Positions 28,143-38,444 of a stretch of DNA of 64,000 nucleotides are shown here, in pieces (within the stretch, counting starts at the first letter, position 1; each line of letters starts with the position of its first letter). The stretch is taken from positions 1,646,997 through 1,710,996 of the forward strand of contig NZ_CP012040.1 of NCBI RefSeq assembly GCF_001050135.1, written 5' to 3'. The notes beneath the pieces were generated by a model. That model had not been told where the DNA came from, did not search any database, and saw only the letters and a program-made list of their open reading frames with translations. This DNA is from Cyclobacterium amurskyense (GTDB lineage: Bacteria > Bacteroidota > Bacteroidia > Cytophagales > Cyclobacteriaceae). A program made the translations under genes and the position numbers.

Positions 28143-28892
28143 TTACTTTTTTAATTTCTCAATTTCCATCCTTAAAAGGTTAATCTGATCCGATATTTCG
28201 CCAGAGGTTTCAGGAATTCGTTTATAGAACACATAGCGAATACGCCAAAGCTCATAGATTTGCTTCGCGTTAAAAACTTGGTCATCAATGCCTTTATGAT
28301 CCGCCCTTAGCACATAACCTTTATCTGTGCTAAAATATCGTCTTACTAAAATATCGGTATCGGTGACAACTATTACAGGGGTTCGATTATTGAGTTTCTT
28401 ATAGGCTGATTTTGGAACTAATTCACCCACTACAACATCGTTAGGATAGAATCCCACATCCTGATTCGCCATTTCCAAATCAGTAACGGTGTAAGCCCTA
28501 AATATTTTCTCATTACTGATGGGCAAGCTCATCACAGGCAAGTCTGCAATAAAGTTTTTCTTTGAATGGTGATTAAGATAGTCTGCAACACACTCGGGTA
28601 ATATTATAGGCACCTTTGTTAAGGCCGCAACCTCCATCTGGTCTGCATCGGTAGTTAAATTGGTATTAAATTTCAATAATTGATTTATGGTCAATTCCTT
28701 TGTTAGCAAATCATCAATGGGGATGCTAAAATAATTTGCAATTTTGATGATAGTATCTATTTTAGGCTCACTACGTTCTTCCTCATAAGCGCCTAAAGTA
28801 GCTCTTTTAAGGTCAAAAACCTCTGCAAATGCTTGTTGAGATAGCAACTTCAAACTTCGTATTTTTTTAATATTCCTTCCAAAAAAAGACAT
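28143..28892 (-). CDS. XRE-family HTH regulator with C-terminal LexA/CI-like (S24-like) domain
   Basis: N-terminal HTH (LSQQAFAEVFDLKRATLGAYEEERSEPKIDTIIKIANYF). The C-terminal β-rich region resembles the S24 fold but shows no clear Ser/Lys dyad. Divergent from the pspA operon. Confidence 0.55.
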   Translation of the reverse strand: MSFFGRNIKKIRSLKLLSQQAFAEVFDLKRATLGAYEEERSEPKIDTIIKIANYFSIPIDDLLTKELTINQLLKFNTNLTTDADQMEVAALTKVPIILPECVADYLNHHSKKNFIADLPVMSLPISNEKIFRAYTVTDLEMANQDVGFYPNDVVVGELVPKSAYKKLNNRTPVIVVTDTDILVRRYFSTDKGYVLRADHKGIDDQVFNAKQIYELWRIRYVFYKRIPETSGEISDQINLLRMEIEKLKK

Positions 28893-29135
28893 GTTTTGCT
28901 AATTTAATTTGCATAAATCCATTTTATTACTATATTTGTTCTAGCAATATTAGTTAAAAGCAGCGGTATTGCAAATTATTTTAGCCAATCATTCAGGGAC
29001 TTAGCCGTGACCTAACTTGCTAATTACAGGGAATTTTACTTGTATTATTCAGCAAAAAAATTAAAATTACTTCGGCTATATCTTCTTTTTTTAGATTGTC
29101 ATAAGCGAAATTGTTACTTAAGCAAACAATAAATT

Positions 29136-29531
29136 ATGGATAACTATTATAATCGTATCATAGAATTTTTATTGAAACTGGATGTTGATATTACAAAAGA
29201 AAATCCTGACGAAGGGATCTTGGTAATCCAGAAAGAGGACAACGGTATCAAGAACCTTATTGTAGGGATTGTACCCCCGGTTTTAATTTTAGAGCAGTAT
29301 ATCTTTAAAATCAAAAACAATAACAACTCGATCTACAAAAGTTTATTGCAAAAAAACAGAGACATTATTCATGGAGCATTTGTACTGGATGACGATGGCG
29401 ATAAAGTAATTTTTAGGGACACACTTCAAATAGAAAACCTAGATCTAAATGAGATAGAAGCTTCCTTAAATTCTCTAAGTCTCTTACTGAGTGAATACTC
29501 GGAACAAATCATTAAGTTTTCTAAATACTAA
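29136..29531 (+). CDS. YbjN-like (type-III-secretion-chaperone-fold) protein
   Basis: 131 aa. The pattern is typical of the YbjN/CesT-Tir-like 'sensory transduction regulator' family. First gene of the operon. Confidence 0.4.
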   Translation: MDNYYNRIIEFLLKLDVDITKENPDEGILVIQKEDNGIKNLIVGIVPPVLILEQYIFKIKNNNNSIYKSLLQKNRDIIHGAFVLDDDGDKVIFRDTLQIENLDLNEIEASLNSLSLLLSEYSEQIIKFSKY

Positions 29532-29543
29532 AATTCAAAAACA

Positions 29544-30257
29544 ATGAACTTCTTGAAACGAATATTTAAAATAGGACAGGCGGAAGCAAACGCTGCTATA
29601 GATAATATGGAAGATCCAATAAAACTAACCGAACAAGGCATTCGAGATTTAAAATTGGATTTAAATAAAAATTTAGATTCGCTTGCTCAAGTTAAAGCAT
29701 TGGCTATACGTGCAAGAAATGATAAAAAAGAGATGGATAGTTCGGCTGAAGAATACTACAATAAAGCCGTTATTATAATAAAAAAAGGGAAATCGGGAGA
29801 ATTAGCTTCTGAGGAAGCCGATCGTTTGGCAAAACAGGCATTGTTAAAAAAAGAGGAAGCTTCCAAAAAGGCTATCCAATATGCAAACGAAGCAAGCAAG
29901 TTGCAAGAATCCGTAAATCAACTTGATGTAAACATTCAAGAGCTAAAAAGCACCATTAATAACTGGGAAAATGAGCTAAAAACACTTAAGGCCAGAGTGA
30001 AGGTGAGCAATGCAAAAAATAGCTTGAACAAACAAATGGCCCAGTTGGACAGTACAGGAACCGTATCTATGCTGGAGCGAATGAAAGAAAAAGTAAACCA
30101 AGAAGAGGCACTGGCTGAGGCGTATGGCGAAATAGCCAATAAGAATCAAAGCATAGACAGCGAGTTAGATAAGGCCGCGAATATCAGTGAAGCAAATGCT
30201 GACAATGAGCTGAATGAATTAAAGAAAAATCTTGGCCTAAATGATAAAAACACATAA
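29544..30257 (+). CDS. pspA: PspA/IM30 (ESCRT-III-like) family protein
   Basis: N-terminal FLKRIFKIGQAEANAAIDNMEDPIKLTEQGIRDLKLDL aligns with E. coli PspA [26 protein letters not shown]. Coiled coil throughout, 237 aa. Confidence 0.8.
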   Translation: MNFLKRIFKIGQAEANAAIDNMEDPIKLTEQGIRDLKLDLNKNLDSLAQVKALAIRARNDKKEMDSSAEEYYNKAVIIIKKGKSGELASEEADRLAKQALLKKEEASKKAIQYANEASKLQESVNQLDVNIQELKSTINNWENELKTLKARVKVSNAKNSLNKQMAQLDSTGTVSMLERMKEKVNQEEALAEAYGEIANKNQSIDSELDKAANISEANADNELNELKKNLGLNDKNT

Positions 30258-30259
30258 AA

Positions 30260-30958
30260 GTGGAAAACATTATTGACATTATATTTTCGAGTGTAAATCT
30301 ACCATTAAGTATTTTTACCATTATTTTGATCCTCTATTGGTTATTAACCATGATTAGTGGGATTGACTTTGACTTAGATATTGATGTTGATGCTGGTTTG
30401 GATGCTAATACCGGTTTAGAAAGTAGCAATATTGATTTTGAAGATGTAGCGAACGCGGAATTCAACGAGAAAGATGTAGCGGGAAATAGGCGAATGCAAT
30501 TAAAATGGTGGCAGGTATTTTTGATTTATTTCAATTTTGTAGGCTTGCCCTTTATGTTTACTTTCACAAGTTTTGTATTTGCCTGGTGGTTTATCACTTT
30601 GACTGTAACAACTATAACACATAGCTATTCAAACAGTATAGGCTTTATTTTTATGCTGGCCAGTTTTATCCCAGCACTAATTTTCACGAAAGTTTTCACA
30701 AGTCCATTCAAAGGTTTTTTCAAGGGTTTTAATAAAAACGGAGATAAGGCCATAGATTTTATCGGAAGAAAAGGCACAAGTTTATCTAGTATTGAAAAGG
30801 ATAAATTAGGCAATGCAGAATTTATCATCGATGGCAACCCTATGTCTGTTTACATCAAATCTTTAAATGGAGAAAAAATCAGTTTTAGAGAAATAGTTCT
30901 CATTATCAAAGAGTCAGAAGACAAAAGTTTTTATTACGCACAAGTATATAACGACTAA
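30260..30958 (+). CDS. YqiJ/NfeD-like membrane protein with C-terminal OB-fold
   Basis: N-terminal TM, acidic linker, two TM helices, C-terminal β-rich domain. Immediately precedes flotillin, as in yqiJK operons. Confidence 0.55.
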   Translation: MENIIDIIFSSVNLPLSIFTIILILYWLLTMISGIDFDLDIDVDAGLDANTGLESSNIDFEDVANAEFNEKDVAGNRRMQLKWWQVFLIYFNFVGLPFMFTFTSFVFAWWFITLTVTTITHSYSNSIGFIFMLASFIPALIFTKVFTSPFKGFFKGFNKNGDKAIDFIGRKGTSLSSIEKDKLGNAEFIIDGNPMSVYIKSLNGEKISFREIVLIIKESEDKSFYYAQVYND

Positions 30959-30967
30959 TTAACAACT

Positions 30968-33034
30968 ATGACAGAGATTCCATCATTATTGGCAATAGGA
31001 ATAGCGTTAATCGTATTCCTAATTATAATTTTCTTTGCAATTATTGCATTGTTCTATAAAAAGGTTCGCCAAGGCGAGGCCTTAATCCGTACCGGTTTTG
31101 GCGGAATCCAAATCGCCACCGATAAGGGCATGTATGTGGTTCCTTTATTTCACAAGTTAGAAATCATGGATATTTCTGTAAAGAAAATCCAGATCGAAAG
31201 ACTAGGATCTGAAGGCTTGGTATGTAAAGACAATATGCGAGCGGACATTAAAGTAGCATTTTTTGTTCGTGTCAACAACGACATAGAATTTATCAAAAGA
31301 GTAGCACAGACAATTGGTGCGGAGCGGGCTTCAAAAATCGAAACCCTTGAAGACTTGTTCGAGGCCAAATTTTCCGAAGCCTTAAAAACCGTGGGAAAAA
31401 AGTTTGATTTCATTGAACTGTATGAAGCCAGACGGGAGTTTAGGGATGAGATCGTAGATATAATAGGGACAGATCTAAACGGATATACCCTTGAAGATTG
31501 TGCGATCGATTTTTTAGAGCAGACTCCGGTAAATTATTTAAGGGCTGACAATATTCTAGATGCAGAAGGAATAAAGAAAATTACTGAACTGACAGCAGAG
31601 CAAAACAAAAAAGCTAACTTCATTAAACGTGATGAGGAAAAAGTCATACGAAAGCAAGATGTGGAGGCACGAGAAGCCATCTTGGAATTAGACCGGCAAT
31701 TGGCAGAAAAGGAGGAATCCCAACGTAGAGAGATTGCCAACATTAAAGCCAGAGAACAAGCGGACATCCTAAAGGTGGCCGAAGAAGAGCGATTAAAATC
31801 TGAAACTGCTAGAATAGCCACTGAGGAGAAAGTAAAGGTGGCTGAAGAAAATATGCAACGTCAGATCATTGTTGCAGAAAAGAACAAGGAACGAACCAAC
31901 GCTGTAGAAACGGAGCGAGTTGAAAAAGACAGAATGCTTGAGGCAACCGAAAGAGAACGTATAGTAACTCTTGCTCAAATTGAAAAGGAAAAAGTTGTTG
32001 AAGTTGAAAAGAAAAATATCCAAGATGTTATCCGGGACCGAGTGGCGCTTGAAAAAGGTGTGGTTCAGGAACAGGAGAACATGAAGGATATTGAGGCCTT
32101 TAAAACAGCAGATAGGGATAAAAAGGTGAAAATCACAATTGCAGAAGGTGTTGCAGAGGAAGAGCTTATTAAAGTAATTAAGCAAGCGGAATCCAAAAAG
32201 GAGGCCATGAAGCAACATGCCGAGGAAATTAACATTGAGGCACAGGCGAAAAAAGAAGCAAGTGCCAAAGAGGCAGAAGGTAGAAAAATCCTGGCAGAAG
32301 CAACCGCGAAAGAAGAAGCGACCATTGGATTGTCAGAGGCACAGGTTATGCATGCCAAAGCAGAAGCAAATGAACGCCAAGGAATTGTAGAGGCATTAAT
32401 AATTGAGAAAAAAGCCTTGGCTGAGGCCAGAGGAATTGAGGCTAATGCAGAAGCAAAACGCAAAGACGGATTGGCAGAAGCAGACGTTATTAAAGAAAAA
32501 GCCCTAGCCGATGCAGCCGGAATTGAAGAGAAGGCCAACGCAATGAAGAAATTAGATGGTGTGGGCAAAGAGCACGAAGAGTTTAAGCTTAAGTTGGATA
32601 AAGAATTACAGGTTGATTTGGCAGAAATCAATATTCAAAAAGCAATTGCAGATGCGCAGGCACAAGTGATTGGAGATGCCTTAAAAACTTCCAAAATTGA
32701 CATCGTGGGAGGAGAAACAATGTTTTTTGAGCAAATTATTGGTCAAATCACTAAAGCAAAAGGCTTTGATAGAATGGTAAATAACAGCACAAACATCCAG
32801 GAAATTAAGCAAGCCTTACTTGGTGACGGCAGTGGTAATGAGGGAGAATTATTGTCACGGATAAAAGATTTTGCTGAAAGGTATAACATCTCAAGTGAGG
32901 ATATCAAAAACGTCACAATTGCCAATTTATTGATGACTATGCAAAATCAGGCTACAGATAAAAATGAACAAAACGTGATTGGCAACCTTCTGAGTTTAGC
33001 TAAAGGCCTAGGGATTTCAGGAAATAAATTGTAA
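30968..33034 (+). CDS. flotillin / SPFH (band-7) family protein, YqiK-like
   Basis: N-terminal TM, SPFH domain (VRQGEALIRTGFGG...), a long E/A/K-rich coiled-coil region, 688 aa. Confidence 0.8.
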   Translation: MTEIPSLLAIGIALIVFLIIIFFAIIALFYKKVRQGEALIRTGFGGIQIATDKGMYVVPLFHKLEIMDISVKKIQIERLGSEGLVCKDNMRADIKVAFFVRVNNDIEFIKRVAQTIGAERASKIETLEDLFEAKFSEALKTVGKKFDFIELYEARREFRDEIVDIIGTDLNGYTLEDCAIDFLEQTPVNYLRADNILDAEGIKKITELTAEQNKKANFIKRDEEKVIRKQDVEAREAILELDRQLAEKEESQRREIANIKAREQADILKVAEEERLKSETARIATEEKVKVAEENMQRQIIVAEKNKERTNAVETERVEKDRMLEATERERIVTLAQIEKEKVVEVEKKNIQDVIRDRVALEKGVVQEQENMKDIEAFKTADRDKKVKITIAEGVAEEELIKVIKQAESKKEAMKQHAEEINIEAQAKKEASAKEAEGRKILAEATAKEEATIGLSEAQVMHAKAEANERQGIVEALIIEKKALAEARGIEANAEAKRKDGLAEADVIKEKALADAAGIEEKANAMKKLDGVGKEHEEFKLKLDKELQVDLAEINIQKAIADAQAQVIGDALKTSKIDIVGGETMFFEQIIGQITKAKGFDRMVNNSTNIQEIKQALLGDGSGNEGELLSRIKDFAERYNISSEDIKNVTIANLLMTMQNQATDKNEQNVIGNLLSLAKGLGISGNKL

Positions 33035-33198: not shown

Positions 33199-36100
33199 AT
33201 GACTGAACCTAATAAAACGGAACAAAAGCAAATTTTAGATGGTGGCACATATGAAATCATTAGAAACAGGTTACAAAAGCATAAACAAGACCTTCAAAAT
33301 CGGTTAAACCAACTAAATGAGGATCGTAAAGCTGTTTTTGGTGCTTTAGAAACAAAACTAATCGCTAATGATAGAATTTCCACAGAAAATAATTGTATCG
33401 CACGTGATATCGTTTCTTTTGGGAATACTTGTGTGTTTGGCTATAATGTGCATTTTGGCTTACGTACAGATATAAAGCTCAATGACGTATTTAGCGTATA
33501 CAGTTTTACCAATAACAGGTTTGAAGCCATAGGGCTAGATTTTATAGAAGACGTTCAGTTTCAAGCAGATTTTGATAATCTATACAAATACTACCGAAAT
33601 ACCATCTTTGCGAGATTTGCCAAAATAGGCAATTTTCTATACATGATTTTTCAATTGAGTGAAAGTGTCACTGATATTAAGGCATTTAAATGGCTTATCA
33701 AAGATGGAAAACTGGTATATGTAGACAACAGAAGCGATCATGAATACAAGTTCCCTGCCCAATATGAGTTTAAATGGCTAGAAGTTACTCGTGATATGCA
33801 CCGGTATGGGGTGCATTCACATGTTTCAATATTGGATAAAGTATTTGTAGAGGCAATAGGAGGAGATCTTACCATAAAAATAGAGGACAATACAGAAGAT
33901 GGTAAAGGGGTCTATGATGAACCTGTAGATTACCCAGATCAAACGCTAGACGATGCACAGTACAAATATGCAGATTTAGGAAATCTTATTCTTATTGATA
34001 TAAAACCATTTCAAGAAGATTCCAGATTTTTTGTATACAATCACAAGGTACAGGAAGTGCAAAAAATTGACAGTTTACGAGAAGCTGCGGTACTTCTACC
34101 TGATGACCAAGGAATTATTTTTCCGACAGGTTATTATTTGCAAACCGGAGAATACCATGTTTTCGATAATAGCATCCCCAATGTAAAGTTTGTTTCGCGA
34201 ATTGCTTCTCCCAATGGTGAAGATTATATGTTCGTGTTCTATTCACCCTCGGAAGGTTTGTATATTCTAATGAGTTATAATGTGATCACTCAACAGATTG
34301 TCACGCCTATTATTTGTAATGGTTACACCATTTTACAAAATGGAGAACTTAGTTACTTTAAGGGTGAAGGAGAGCAAACCAAGCATCATGTGGTACAAAT
34401 TTGGCAAACTCCTTATTTAAAAGGTGATTTCATCCCAAGTAAACACACGGACTCGCTATTGTATAAAATCGGAAATAAAGACATTGTCAAAGCCATGGCT
34501 GAAAGCAATGCCTTGATCAATTTACTCAACAAAGATGATAATTATGAGGGCCTATATGAGGATGTTTCCAAGGCCGCAAAAGACCTATTGGACTCGTATT
34601 ATTGGATTAAGGAACCGGATACACAGGATCTTTCTGCACCTCTAAATGAAATTAGTGATGCAGCCAATGCTGCTATAGATGAATTTACAAAGGTTGTTCA
34701 ATTAAAAAAATCGGCTGCAAGCCAATCAAAGGCTTTGCAAAATAAAGCAGATGAACTTTTTGTTATAATAAAAAGCACCTCATTTAATAGCATCAATGAT
34801 TTTGTATCAATGTTAACCCAGCTTCGTGGCTTAAGGGGCGAAACCATTGAATTAAACGATGTTCGCTATGTAAATACCGACTACACCAAGGAACTTGAAA
34901 ATACGATTGCCGAGTATTCCGACAATATTGCTCAGCAATGTGTAGCATTTTTACTTAATGATGATGCATTGGCGCCTTATAAGTTGCAAGTTGAGGAAAA
35001 GAAAATGGCTTTGGAAAAAGTCACTAAAGTAATCGAAGCCAAGCAACTTGAGGAAGAGGTAAATCAAATTGCAAGGGATTTAGAGTTATTGATTGAAATT
35101 GTATCCAATTTAGAAATTGAAGACACATCCCAATCAACTAAAATAATCGATCATATTTCCTTGATTTTTGCCACGTTAAATCAGCTCAAAGCCGCAATAA
35201 AAAACAAACGCAAATCTCTGGGCAGCAAAGAAGCCATTGCTGATTTTTCTGCGCAAATAAAATTGGTGGACCAAAGCATTATCAACTATTTGGATATTGC
35301 CGATACCCCCGAAAAATGTGATGAATACCAAACCAAAGTATCTATTCAACTGGAAGAATTGGAAGGTAAATTTGCAGATTATGATGCGTTTATTCCCAAA
35401 ATAATTGAGAAACGGGAGGAAGTCCATGCGGCTTTTGACAATAAAAAAACGGGCTTAATTGAGCGACGAAATAAAAAATCAATTGCTTTAAAAACTGCAA
35501 CAGCACGCATTTTAAAAGGAGTTGCCAAAAAAGCAGAAACCTTAAAATCCACTGCAGAAATAAATGGTTATTTCGCATCCGACTTAATGATCAACAAGGT
35601 CCGTGACATCATCGATCAGCTAAATGAATTGGATGAAAGTGGGAATGCAGAAGAAGTAGCCACTTCTTTAAAGGTTGCCAAGGAAGATGCCTTACGTAAA
35701 TTAAAAGACAAGCAGGAGCTGTTTGAAGATGGCGAAAACGTTATTAAACTGGGCAAGTACAAATTTGGTGTAAATAAACAGCCCCTAGATATAACCATCG
35801 TTTTCAAAGACAATCACCTCAATTATCATCTAACAGGGACAGATTTCTATCAAAAACTGACCAACAAAGTACTGGTAAACAGCCAGAAATATTGGGATCA
35901 AGAATACCCTTCTGAAAACATCACAGTATATAGGGGGAGTTACCTAGCTTTTAAACTGTTTAAGGAAACACCCTGGGACCAATTGGCGGATGCCTCCCAG
36001 GAAAACTTGGTTCAATTGGTAAAAAAGGCAAGCAGTGCCAACTACAATGAAGGGTATACAAAAGGGGTACACGATGAGGATGCGGCAAAAATTTTACTAA

Positions 36101-38067
36101 CCCTAGTGAATACGCATAAAGACTTGGGTTTACTGCGTTACTCACCTGCCATAAGAGCCCATGCACAATACAGTTGGTATTCATTTACTGAAAAGGAACG
36201 CCTGCATCTTAATCGGATGATAAAAGCGGCTGGATCTGTTTTGGAAGTATTCCCTTATTCTAAAGAGTTTAATTACCTGATAGATGAATTGCAGCAAAAA
36301 ATCCATAGGCTTATTTCTGAAACTCAGCTATTTTCAAGTGCTGAAATTAATGTTATTTCAAATTATTTGTTTGAAGAATTGCAGGGTAATGATGCCTTTG
36401 AAGTAAGTTCAGAAGCAGAGAAATTAAGGCAAGCCTTTAATAATGTCATGAAAGCAAAAAATGCTGATTTACGTTTTAAAGAAGCCATTGACAATACCAG
36501 TACATTTCATGAGAAAATAAAACTCGCAAGGCAATGGGTTGCTGCATTCATCAATCAGGAGCATCCAAAGAATGCCCGTTATATTGATGAGATCGTTTGT
36601 AATTGCTTGTTTGATCAACCCATTGCAAAAAAGAAAATGATTTCGCCAAATGCTGTCATTCATAATTTAGCGGGAAACCACCATACCATTATTGAAGGAG
36701 AATTTCATTTTAATTATCATGATTTTGTGGCTACTTTAACTCATTTCACAAATGAGGAGGTAGCCGCTTACCAAGCCTTTAAAAAGGCAAAAACCGATAT
36801 TACCCTTCAGTTAAAAGAGCAGTTAAAATTGGAAGAGTATAAACCTCAGGTTCTGACTTCCTTTGTGCGTAACAAACTAATCGATCAGGTTTATTTGCCA
36901 TTATTTGGAGAGAACCTGTCCAAACAACTTGGTACCGTGGGGAACAATAGTCGGACAGATAGAATGGGGCTTTTGCTTTTGATTTCGCCTCCAGGCTACG
37001 GTAAAACCACTTTGATGGAATACATTGCCAACCGATTGGGCTTAGTGTTCATGAAAATTAACGGGCCAGCCATAGGCCATGAGGTTACCTCGGTAGACCC
37101 TGAAGCAGCCACAAATAGTGCAGCAAAAGAGGAGTTAAAAAAGCTGAATTTAGCCTTTGAAATGGGAAATAACGTAATGTTGTATTTAGACGATATTCAA
37201 CATTGCCATCCAGAGTTTTTACAAAAATTCATATCCCTTTCCGATGGCACCAGAAAAATTGAAGGAATATATAACGGAAAGCCACGTACCTATGACCTTC
37301 GAGGCAAAAAGTTCTGTGTAATAATGGCAGGAAACCCCTATACAGAGCGTGGGGCAAAATTCCAGGTTCCAGACATGCTATCCAACCGAGCCGATATTTA
37401 TAATCTTGGGGACATTATAGGCGATTCAGACCATCAGTTTAACCTTAGCTTAATAGAAAATTCTTTAACTAGCAATCCTGTATTGAATCAACTGAGGAAT
37501 AAATATCTTGAAGATGTTTATACCTTGTTAAATCGGGTTGAAAACGAAACACAGGACGGTGTACTTCATGGTAATCACACCAATCAAGAAATTCAGGATT
37601 ACTTAAGCGTAATCCAAAAGGTTTTAAAGATAAGAGACACTGTACTCAAAGTAAACCAAGCTTATATAGAAAGCGCTGCTAAGGATGATGCCTACAGGAC
37701 TGAACCCCCATTTAAACTACAAGGTTCTTATCGAGACATGAATAAACTGGTATCCAAAGTGGTTCCTATTATGAACAATAAGGAGTTACAAAATCTTTTG
37801 TTGTCGCATTACGAAAGTGAGGCACAAACGCTTACAAGTTCCGCCGAAGCCAACTTATTAAAATACAAAGAACTAACTGGCACAATTACACCAATAGAAC
37901 AAGCTAGATGGGGTGAAATAAAAACCACTTTTATTAAAAACAACAAGTTAAGAGGCTTAGGAAATCAAGATGAAATGGCACAGGTAGTGCTGCAAATGGT
38001 CAATTTCAGTGATAACCTGGAAGGCATAAAAGAAGTGCTAGAACGCGCCATTAAGGCGAAAGGGTAA
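33199..38067 (+). CDS. 1622-aa protein with single C-terminal MoxR/dynein-like AAA+ ATPase domain and large N-terminal region of unknown function
   Basis: Walker A LLLISPPGYGKTTLME, Walker B VMLYLDD, sensor-1 CVIMAGNP, arginine-finger/sensor region DMLSNRADIYN. The ~1200 N-terminal residues have no recognisable motif and several coiled-coil stretches. Confidence 0.65.
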   Translation: MTEPNKTEQKQILDGGTYEIIRNRLQKHKQDLQNRLNQLNEDRKAVFGALETKLIANDRISTENNCIARDIVSFGNTCVFGYNVHFGLRTDIKLNDVFSVYSFTNNRFEAIGLDFIEDVQFQADFDNLYKYYRNTIFARFAKIGNFLYMIFQLSESVTDIKAFKWLIKDGKLVYVDNRSDHEYKFPAQYEFKWLEVTRDMHRYGVHSHVSILDKVFVEAIGGDLTIKIEDNTEDGKGVYDEPVDYPDQTLDDAQYKYADLGNLILIDIKPFQEDSRFFVYNHKVQEVQKIDSLREAAVLLPDDQGIIFPTGYYLQTGEYHVFDNSIPNVKFVSRIASPNGEDYMFVFYSPSEGLYILMSYNVITQQIVTPIICNGYTILQNGELSYFKGEGEQTKHHVVQIWQTPYLKGDFIPSKHTDSLLYKIGNKDIVKAMAESNALINLLNKDDNYEGLYEDVSKAAKDLLDSYYWIKEPDTQDLSAPLNEISDAANAAIDEFTKVVQLKKSAASQSKALQNKADELFVIIKSTSFNSINDFVSMLTQLRGLRGETIELNDVRYVNTDYTKELENTIAEYSDNIAQQCVAFLLNDDALAPYKLQVEEKKMALEKVTKVIEAKQLEEEVNQIARDLELLIEIVSNLEIEDTSQSTKIIDHISLIFATLNQLKAAIKNKRKSLGSKEAIADFSAQIKLVDQSIINYLDIADTPEKCDEYQTKVSIQLEELEGKFADYDAFIPKIIEKREEVHAAFDNKKTGLIERRNKKSIALKTATARILKGVAKKAETLKSTAEINGYFASDLMINKVRDIIDQLNELDESGNAEEVATSLKVAKEDALRKLKDKQELFEDGENVIKLGKYKFGVNKQPLDITIVFKDNHLNYHLTGTDFYQKLTNKVLVNSQKYWDQEYPSENITVYRGSYLAFKLFKETPWDQLADASQENLVQLVKKASSANYNEGYTKGVHDEDAAKILLTLVNTHKDLGLLRYSPAIRAHAQYSWYSFTEKERLHLNRMIKAAGSVLEVFPYSKEFNYLIDELQQKIHRLISETQLFSSAEINVISNYLFEELQGNDAFEVSSEAEKLRQAFNNVMKAKNADLRFKEAIDNTSTFHEKIKLARQWVAAFINQEHPKNARYIDEIVCNCLFDQPIAKKKMISPNAVIHNLAGNHHTIIEGEFHFNYHDFVATLTHFTNEEVAAYQAFKKAKTDITLQLKEQLKLEEYKPQVLTSFVRNKLIDQVYLPLFGENLSKQLGTVGNNSRTDRMGLLLLISPPGYGKTTLMEYIANRLGLVFMKINGPAIGHEVTSVDPEAATNSAAKEELKKLNLAFEMGNNVMLYLDDIQHCHPEFLQKFISLSDGTRKIEGIYNGKPRTYDLRGKKFCVIMAGNPYTERGAKFQVPDMLSNRADIYNLGDIIGDSDHQFNLSLIENSLTSNPVLNQLRNKYLEDVYTLLNRVENETQDGVLHGNHTNQEIQDYLSVIQKVLKIRDTVLKVNQAYIESAAKDDAYRTEPPFKLQGSYRDMNKLVSKVVPIMNNKELQNLLLSHYESEAQTLTSSAEANLLKYKELTGTITPIEQARWGEIKTTFIKNNKLRGLGNQDEMAQVVLQMVNFSDNLEGIKEVLERAIKAKG

Positions 38068-38371
38068 ACTGAAATTACTACTTTGCTGAGGCTGAAAGAA
38101 CCTAAATACAACAAAAAACGGTAATTTTCTTCTAAAAGGTTTTTAACTGTTTTCACTCCACTCAGTTCAAACCAATAACTCACTTTTGACAAGGCACAAG
38201 GCATGTTAAAACTTTTCAGAAATGTGCAACAAACATAGATGATTCACAAGTCGAGGCTCCTACTGAGAAACTGAACCTTGATCAACCCCTTCCGAGGTTG
38301 AGGTAATGATGAATTATTCAACGGCTATGGGGTTTTCAACTATGGTTAATATAATTGAAGCCCAAACATAA

Positions 38372-38444
38372 AAAAGGCGGTAAATATCCCTAAGGGACAT
38401 TTACCGCCTTTTTTATTTTCAATTACTTGAAGAAGTAGTAAACT
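38372..38444. repeat. right copy of the direct repeat
   Basis: ggcggtaaat..atttaccgcc hairpin with compensatory stem changes relative to the left copy, then an identical 47-nt tail. Abuts the lspA stop. Confidence 0.8.

Follow-up and report, generated by a model that had tools for sequence, protein, structure and literature searches.

The DNA discussed here is a stretch of 64,000 nucleotides (nt) from Cyclobacterium amurskyense (contig NZ_CP012040.1, positions 1646997 to 1710996), and it is this whole stretch that is called the window below. It carries, on the forward strand, the gene of a giant AAA+ ATPase. This gene is the sole long open reading frame (ORF) at positions 33199 to 38067, with an ATG start and 1622 codons' worth of protein, and it closes a dense cluster of genes on that strand, which encodes, in this order, a CesT/Tir-like chaperone, PspA, a transmembrane (TM) protein, a flotillin and the ATPase. 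It was observed that across phyla the flotillin, and not PspA, is the constant partner of the ATPase. The members of the cluster in the window are as follows.

29136 to 29531, forward strand: CesT/Tir-like chaperone of 131 residues, first gene of the cluster (PF22550, E=8e-56)
29544 to 30257, forward strand: PspA/IM30, ESCRT-III-like, 237 residues (PF04012, E=8e-36)
30260 to 30958, forward strand: multi-TM protein of 232 residues, hydrophobic, with no Pfam or NCBIfam match
30968 to 33034, forward strand: long flotillin of 688 residues (PF01145 Band_7, E=6.6e-14), with an N-terminal TM segment, an SPFH domain, a coiled coil and a flotillin tail
33199 to 38067, forward strand: giant AAA+ ATPase of the DUF3686/DUF7902/AAA+ family, 1622 residues, 185.3 kDa, pI 5.5

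The genes of the chaperone and of PspA are only 12 nt apart. The TM protein gives a BLASTP E-value of 4.2 with E. coli YqiJ, and the profile searches of Ravi et al. place the TM protein of this operon in the YqiJ/YuaF type (PMC11237479). The flotillin is 29% identical to E. coli YqiK over residues 4-445 (E=6e-45). As it has a single N-terminal TM segment followed by the residues KKVR, most of it is predicted to lie in the cytoplasm. In E. coli (YqiJ-YqiK) and in B. subtilis (YuaF-FloT), too, the gene of a small TM protein precedes that of a flotillin. However, the yqiK gene of E. coli K-12 has no ATPase gene after it. The flotillin operon of B. subtilis is likewise not known to contain such an ATPase, as Ravi et al. 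also have it.

The operon as such is not new. A CesT/Tir-PspA operon with a TM protein, a flotillin and an AAA+ ATPase was described by Ravi et al. in mSystems in 2024, and their example, ANH61663.1 of Dokdonia donghaensis DSW-1 (Table S3), has the same gene order, including the divergent regulator (PMC11237479). They found abbreviated flotillin/TM/(ATPase) operons to be more widespread and proposed ATP-dependent, membrane-associated assembly roles for the operon (PMC11237479). The cluster in the window shares with theirs the CesT/Tir-PspA pair and the flotillin, and nothing substantive differs. The family is, moreover, present in Pfam and named by NCBI, so that the novelty implied in a preliminary description of the window, made by a model from the letters of the DNA, did not hold. 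The work of Ravi et al. is comparative-genomic inference only, in which the constant flotillin partner was not quantified and the AAA+ motifs were not analysed. What is added here is the counts showing that flotillin and not PspA is the constant partner, and the partner flotillins as a subfamily of their own. Also new are a motif-level account of the AAA+ site, with its DD Walker B, its lack of an aromatic pore loop and a predicted pre-sensor-1 hairpin, and a domain of some 350 residues that is confidently folded in the model and has no known relatives.

Architecture of the giant ATPase

More than 4,487 homologues of the ATPase were found among 5.8 billion proteins. The best 120 of these are 1612-1657 residues long and 64-99% identical to it. 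An exhaustive HMMER search with residues 1-1200 against the representatives of protein clusters built at 50% identity retrieved 1,345 clusters at E<=1e-3 and 407 at E<=1e-30. The full-length representatives (about 1500-1930 residues) are colinear with the query from residue ~10 to 1198, at identities down to 26%, and full-length relatives span at least seven phyla. Among the matches listed, the nearest named relatives are Flavobacteriaceae, namely Leeuwenhoekiella and Dokdonia (67-69% identity; 67-68% for the Dokdonia orthologues). Public marine metagenome assemblies also contain near-identical contigs. The ATPase carries the features of the family, being colinear over its full length and having, towards its C-terminus, an AAA+ module with SPPGYGKT, DDxQH, AGNP, NR and QGSYR. 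Judging from these matches, it is a member of a bacterial family widespread across phyla. A fusion of two genes by a frameshift was ruled out as the source of the long frame, given the thousands of colinear full-length homologues.

In Pfam, residues 31-468 match PF12458 (DUF3686) over all of its profile positions, 1-448 of 448, with 588.8 bits against a gathering cut-off of 25 (E=7e-177). Residues 589-673 match PF25472 (DUF7902) with 91.9 bits against a cut-off of 26 (E=3e-26). When 28 diverse relatives were scanned in the same way, DUF3686 and DUF7902 were present in every one, AAA in 27 and AAA_5 in 26. The longest family members (1858-2036 residues), taken up as a Rosetta-stone check, show no further Pfam domain. 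The parts of the protein, all on the forward strand, are listed below.

33289 to 34602: DUF3686 region, residues 31-468, an N-terminal helix followed by a beta-rich domain
34633 to 35748: helical arm, residues 479-850, long helices in three-helix bundles like spectrin repeats; contains DUF7902 (34963-35217)
35791 to 36828: confidently modelled domain, residues 865-1210, a small beta-sheet with alpha-helices; no Pfam family, no fold match
36862 to 37878: AAA+ module, residues ~1222-1560 (from Pfam, motifs and model)
36985 to 37011: Walker A, SPPGYGKTT, residues 1263-1271
37177 to 37194: Walker B, MLYLDD, residues 1327-1332 (DDIQH extends to residue 1335, position 37203)
37255 to 37296: predicted pre-sensor-1 hairpin, residues 1353-1366 (from the model)
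37321 to 37338: sensor 1, IMAGNP, residues 1375-1380
37378 to 37392: LSNRA, residues 1394-1398, with R1397 as candidate arginine finger
37720 to 37734: QGSYR, residues 1508-1512, with R1512 as candidate sensor 2

Thus, the AAA+ module makes up only the last quarter of the protein. No TM helix was detected by Kyte-Doolittle analysis in 19-residue windows, the highest mean being 1.24. The preliminary description had spoken of a giant, probably soluble or peripheral protein with one AAA+ module and an N-terminal region of about 1200 residues without known function, and both statements are borne out. It had also placed Walker A, Walker B, sensor 1 and LSNRA correctly.

The N-terminal ~1200 residues are colinear and conserved, and DUF3686 and DUF7902 are found in all 28 members, which argues that this arm is a part of the machine. 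Sequence and profile searches of Pfam, NCBIfam, PADLOC and PDB revealed no known enzyme domain in it, and about 580 residues (~674-1255) are without any Pfam family. Two AlphaFold models, of residues 1-850 and 831-1622, were built from a shallow alignment of 33 sequences. In the first, a helix at residues 17-46 is followed by paired strands at residues 68-360, with a predicted local distance difference test (pLDDT) score of 60-77; residues ~290-470 are poorly modelled, and the long helices of residues 479-850 are confident (pLDDT 80-88). Ravi et al. described the N-terminal part of the ATPase as a beta-propeller with coiled-coil regions, the propeller corresponding to the DUF3686 region (PMC11237479); what the first model shows there is a beta-rich region of paired strands. 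The second model has a mean pLDDT of 76. Its residues 865-1210 reach a pLDDT of ~90 and form a small sheet with about 15 helices. The model also shows the AAA+ alpha/beta core (residues ~1222-1405), the helices of a lid region and, at the C-terminus, a helical tail. The domain at residues 865-1210 has no strong structural match, and no match to the HD-domain fold. It contains an invariant cluster of polar residues (E906, R912, Y953, G956, H958, D959, D961 and R986), a part of which is the motif KGVHDxDA at residues 955-962 (positions 36061-36084). This cluster could be a binding site for a ligand, a metal or a partner.

The conservation of the AAA+ motifs was judged over 28-32 relatives at 29-68% identity. 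Residues S1263-T1270 of Walker A, D1331, D1332, Q1334 and H1335 of Walker B, and A1377-P1380 of sensor 1 are invariant. So are G1385, F1388, P1391, M1393, L1394, N1396 and R1397 in the region of the candidate finger, and P1503, F1505 and Q1508-R1512 near the candidate sensor 2. Such invariance implies that the nucleotide site is active and under selection. Walker B reads DDIQH, with DD in place of the DE of the usual hhhhDE. DnaA and DnaC/IstB, which are AAA+ proteins of the switch type, also have a DD Walker B, and it may mean slow or regulated hydrolysis. In classical unfoldases, the aromatic pore-loop residue sits in the beta2-alpha2 loop. Here, this loop (GPAIGHEVTSVDP) is strongly conserved (GP-A/S-L/I-G..V.SLDP) and has no aromatic residue. 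Both the DD Walker B and the missing aromatic pore loop speak against a fast, processive unfoldase that threads polypeptides, and rather for a remodeller that is slow, switch-like or grips its partner.

The structure searches on the model confirm the AAA+ fold. Foldseek returned RuvB (E=5e-4), p97 (E=1e-3) and NorQ (E=1.9e-3), the best target-normalised TM-score being 0.47, for NorQ. No solved structure of a relative was found, as the PDB sequence and profile matches are limited to ~45-65 residues around Walker A. The Pfam matches on the core are weak, with 32 bits for PF00004, which covers only profile positions 1-95 of 131, and 26.4 bits for AAA_5. MoxR, HCLR and classical AAA+ proteins all match weakly, with no clade singled out.

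The placement in the MoxR/dynein-related group, which the preliminary description had favoured, is no more than plausible. AAA+ clades 4-7 form a superclade whose defining mark is the pre-sensor-1 insert, a beta-hairpin that stands after alpha3 and before beta4 (PMC7973254), and such a hairpin is predicted immediately ahead of sensor 1, with strands at residues 1353-1358 and 1361-1366 (pLDDT ~75). Other features do not go along with this placement. The helix-2 insert of clade 7 (PMC7973254), a beta-hairpin inside alpha2, is not seen in the model, where an 18-residue conserved loop (residues 1289-1306) stands between beta2 and alpha2 instead, although a negative of this kind is weak as it is based on a model. 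No VWA-domain partner gene was found among the Pfam-scanned operon proteins or among the annotated genes of the two annotated plasmid loci. The MoxR proteins (RavA, CbbQ, NorQ) and the dynein/midasin AAA_5 group also differ in their size, 300-600 residues against 1622, and in their Walker B. Moreover, the likeness of the ATPase to the HCLR clade (ClpA/B, Lon, RuvB) equals that to MoxR/AAA_5. Features of classical clade 3 are not evident either, as the pre-sensor-1 hairpin is predicted, only one finger arginine (R1397) is invariant and no MIT match was obtained. Two long helices (residues ~1427-1449 and 1462-1494), which come after the first lid helices and before the helix with QGSYR, could be a pre-sensor-2 insert.

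Gene partners across phyla

A scan with one genome per species yielded at least 589 loci of the family, of which 80, from Bacteroidota, Planctomycetota, Verrucomicrobiota, Desulfobacterota and Clostridia, were analysed by tblastn with the operon proteins of the window. The denominators below (65 or 64) are the loci with enough upstream DNA. A flotillin lies directly upstream of the ATPase on the same strand at 63 of 65 loci. The small TM protein is upstream, on the same strand, at 48 of 64 and PspA at 31 of 64, and all 31 of the latter are Bacteroidota. These PspA-bearing loci also have the CesT gene (30/31) and the divergent helix-turn-helix (HTH) regulator (30/31). PspA was not present at any of the Planctomycetota, Verrucomicrobiota, Clostridia, Streptomyces or Deinococcus loci examined. 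At five more distant loci, on Pseudomonas fluorescens pQBR103, a Streptomyces linear plasmid, a Deinococcus plasmid, a Vibrio replicon and a Proteus replicon, the flotillin is again directly upstream in every case, bringing the total to 68 of 70. The preliminary description had linked the ATPase to the neighbouring flotillin and pspA genes and had asked whether the two always adjoin it. The link stands; the flotillin is nearly constant as a neighbour, and PspA is present upstream at about half of the loci.

The flotillins linked to the ATPase are 643-731 residues long in the cross-phylum set (mostly 652-729 among the 63 scan loci), as against 553 for YqiK of E. coli, and are conserved over their whole length. 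When compared with each other across phyla, they score 236-854 bits, and 1010 bits between two Clostridia loci, whereas they score only 89-181 bits against E. coli YqiK, the gammaproteobacterial ones included. These scores point to a long flotillin subfamily of its own, separate from E. coli YqiK. By the linkage counts and the similarity within this subfamily, flotillin and ATPase behave as a co-inherited pair, to which PspA and CesT were added in a lineage-specific manner.

No conserved extra gene stands between flotillin and ATPase; where the two are far apart, by up to 2.4 kb, the DNA between them contains unrelated small ORFs of the lipoprotein or TM kind. At five loci (L004, L013, L018, L025 and L074), gaps of 1-2.4 kb contain one to three small ORFs with lipoprotein-like or TM-like N-termini; an ORF in the gap of L013 is transposase-like by eye only. 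On pQBR103 (locus L081; a 425-kb plasmid of P. fluorescens SBW25, NC_009444.1, 84437-97641), the ATPase is annotated with 1748 residues. The pair there ends a long cluster of YjfI, PspA, rhomboid, DUF2491, DUF350, DUF1190 and glutathionylspermidine synthase genes, which unites two PspA operon classes kept separate by Ravi et al.

Proposed function and rival explanations

It is an open question by what means SPFH/flotillin cages are put together, opened and recycled, and the same goes for the control of bacterial PspA polymers where no ATPase of the Vps4 type exists (PMC7619361). The present family, mis-annotated genome-wide as a 'DNA repair ATPase', is the obvious candidate for the energy source of at least one large subfamily of flotillins that occurs in many phyla, and its strict pairing with the flotillin offers a two-protein system that is open to direct test. 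It is proposed, at about even odds, that the ATPase is a soluble cytoplasmic AAA+ mechano-enzyme that acts on, and remodels, the flotillin scaffold encoded upstream of it, and that in Bacteroidota this action is coupled to PspA. The proposal starts from what is observed, namely the architecture, conservation and motifs of the ATPase, its lack of a TM segment and its near-obligate linkage to one cytoplasm-facing flotillin subfamily.

By analogy with other AAA+ proteins, the ATPase would probably form a hexamer of ~1.1 MDa, with the C-terminal AAA+ ring as the source of ATP-driven conformational work. Each subunit would contribute an arm of ~1200 residues, made of the beta-rich DUF3686 head, the spectrin-like helical bundles and the novel helical domain. 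The arms are envisaged to bind directly to the cytoplasmic face of the membrane-anchored flotillin assembly, which would then be opened, disassembled or recycled, so that the turnover of membrane microdomains is controlled. The topology fits such docking, since the ATPase has no TM segment and the bulk of the flotillin is predicted to be cytoplasmic. Long arms would also suit a flotillin target, as the eukaryotic flotillin is a barrel of 44 subunits, 19-32 nm wide (bioRxiv 10.1101/2024.05.09.593390). In the Bacteroidota, including the window, the pair has been combined with an envelope-stress module of CesT/Tir and PspA, under a regulator of the Cro/CI type, and flotillin remodelling would probably be coupled there to the recruitment or release of PspA at the damaged membrane. 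A bolder form of the proposal, held only tentatively, is that this would be the first family dedicated to the ATP-driven remodelling of an SPFH/flotillin assembly. A soluble ring of ~1.1 MDa would grip the cytoplasmic cage with six spectrin-like arms and open or recycle it, and in Bacteroidota this turnover would gate membrane repair by PspA. If this is true, bacterial flotillin microdomains are actively turned over, much as ESCRT-III is by Vps4.

Precedents for an AAA+ machine paired with an SPFH scaffold or an ESCRT-III protein are HflK/C-FtsH and Vps4/ESCRT-III. At the inner membrane, the SPFH-family scaffold HflK/C is functionally coupled to the AAA+ machine FtsH (PMC12048511). However, FtsH is anchored in the membrane and carries a protease domain (M41), and its HflK/C cage lies in the periplasm, whereas the ATPase here has neither TM segment nor protease domain and the bulk of its flotillin is predicted to be cytoplasmic. 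It is therefore the case that the ATPase could touch the flotillin scaffold directly. PspF is a different kind of protein, as the present ATPase has no sigma-54 activator domain and no DNA-binding HTH.

Several points weigh against the remodelling of flotillin. The adjacency of the two genes is a functional link, but it does not prove flotillin to be the substrate. Flotillins of the YqiK/FloT type operate without the ATPase in many bacteria, E. coli and B. subtilis among them, and hence there is no general requirement for it. L050 and L051 are the only ones among the 65 loci without an upstream flotillin; upstream of the ATPase at L051, in a Desulfobacteraceae metagenome-assembled genome, are several unrelated ORFs of small size, and these point to a rearrangement. 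Co-transcription is not guaranteed across the 164 nt between flotillin and ATPase in the window, nor in the other genomes with unrelated small ORFs in this gap, and in many genomes the ATPase may have its own promoter. The model of residues 1-850, on which the shape of the arm depends, is poor (mean pLDDT 65, predicted TM-score 0.32). Lastly, no experimental work on any member of the family was found in the literature. Searches for papers on DUF3686 or on a 'DNA repair ATPase' with flotillin likewise retrieved none, and a 2026 paper on SPFH proteins of P. aeruginosa makes no mention of such an ATPase.

Other explanations are held to be less likely. The flotillin may serve as a platform only, with the ATPase acting in the manner of MoxR on other microdomain proteins by maturing, extracting or inserting them. 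Such a client-directed chaperone is rather unlikely, since the VWA-domain partner gene, the usual companion of MoxR ATPases, is missing and the ATPase matches MoxR proteins no better than HCLR proteins. Furthermore, apart from the small TM protein, no third 'client' gene is conserved with the pair across phyla. It is also conceivable that the substrate is the ESCRT-III-like PspA polymer, the flotillin being its membrane adaptor and the ATPase a disassemblase functionally analogous to Vps4. An AAA+ ATPase encoded beside an ESCRT-III-superfamily PspA does make ATP-driven polymer turnover possible. PspA and CesT/Tir are found in the cluster of the window, PspA is seen at 31 of 64 loci and also on pQBR103, and the ESCRT-III/Vps4 analogy was drawn by Ravi et al. 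(PMC11237479). In addition, bacteria lack a Vps4-type regulator of PspA according to a 2025 review (PMC7619361). We nevertheless regard this as distinctly unlikely, as PspA is missing from about half of the loci while the flotillin is nearly invariant. The ATPase is also about four times larger than Vps4, has no MIT domain by Pfam, and its AAA+ module is unlike classical clade 3.

A large ATPase with an HTH regulator, present in copies on megaplasmids, might recall a component of an anti-phage or abortive-infection membrane defence, and the regulator does match generic HTH and control-protein models of PADLOC. In PADLOC-DB 2.0, however, the ATPase finds only P-loop-level matches (E>=3.7e-4, the best being IetA with E=3.7e-4 over 30 residues), and the flotillin, the TM protein and CesT find none. 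The N-terminal 1200 residues have no homologue in 50,697 phage records, by which a phage origin is likewise rejected. The locus, moreover, is not part of a defence island, its surroundings in the window being housekeeping genes (ileS, lspA, a TonB receptor), and the family is broadly and vertically distributed. A role in defence is thus very improbable. The same is even truer of DNA repair, to which hardly any credence is given here. The NCBI product name is 'DNA repair ATPase' and the Pfam description of DUF3686 is 'ATPase involved in DNA repair', and weak RuvB_N/RuvB matches go along with these names (Pfam E=1.2e-4; NCBIfam 22 bits against a cut-off of 282; the Foldseek match above). But the sequence-based matches span only ~45 residues around Walker A and are far below the family cut-offs, and no nuclease, helicase or DNA-binding domain was found in the 1622 residues. 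No repair gene is present among the annotated or Pfam-scanned neighbours either, the conserved neighbours being membrane proteins. As there is also no NCBIfam model behind the name, and no paper was found, the label is, on the searches made here, without support.

Control region and flanks

Upstream of the cluster, the divergent regulator is encoded as follows.

28143 to 28892, reverse strand: HTH_3 (Cro/CI-type) regulator of 249 residues (Pfam HTH_3, E=1.7e-10)

The N-terminal HTH_3 is the only Pfam domain detected in it, and Ravi et al. label the regulator 'cHTH+Protease' (PMC11237479, Table S3). Its C-terminal half reads T-D-L-E-M where S24 peptidases of the LexA/CI type have G-D-S-M, and going by this replacement the peptidase-like domain may be catalytically inactive. 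Regulator and CesT gene are separated by a divergent promoter region of 243 nt, with an imperfect inverted repeat of 23 nt (ATGTTTTGCTAATTTAATTTGCA / TGCAAATTATTTTAGCCAATCAT; window positions 28891-28992), the arms of which are 56 nt apart. This repeat may serve the HTH regulator as a pair of operators.

The -7 promoter motif of Bacteroidota is TAnnTTTG, and TATATTTG at ~28932-28939 agrees with it. At the other end of the cluster, between the stop of the ATPase (38067) and the convergent lspA, positions 38371-38413 can form a hairpin with a 20-bp stem and runs of A and T on both sides, which looks like a strong bidirectional terminator. Past this hairpin lie lspA and ileS, both convergent to the cluster. 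The outer flanks are housekeeping in nature, with a TonB-dependent receptor, a GMC oxidoreductase, an HD-domain phosphohydrolase and an outer-membrane efflux protein of the OEP family.

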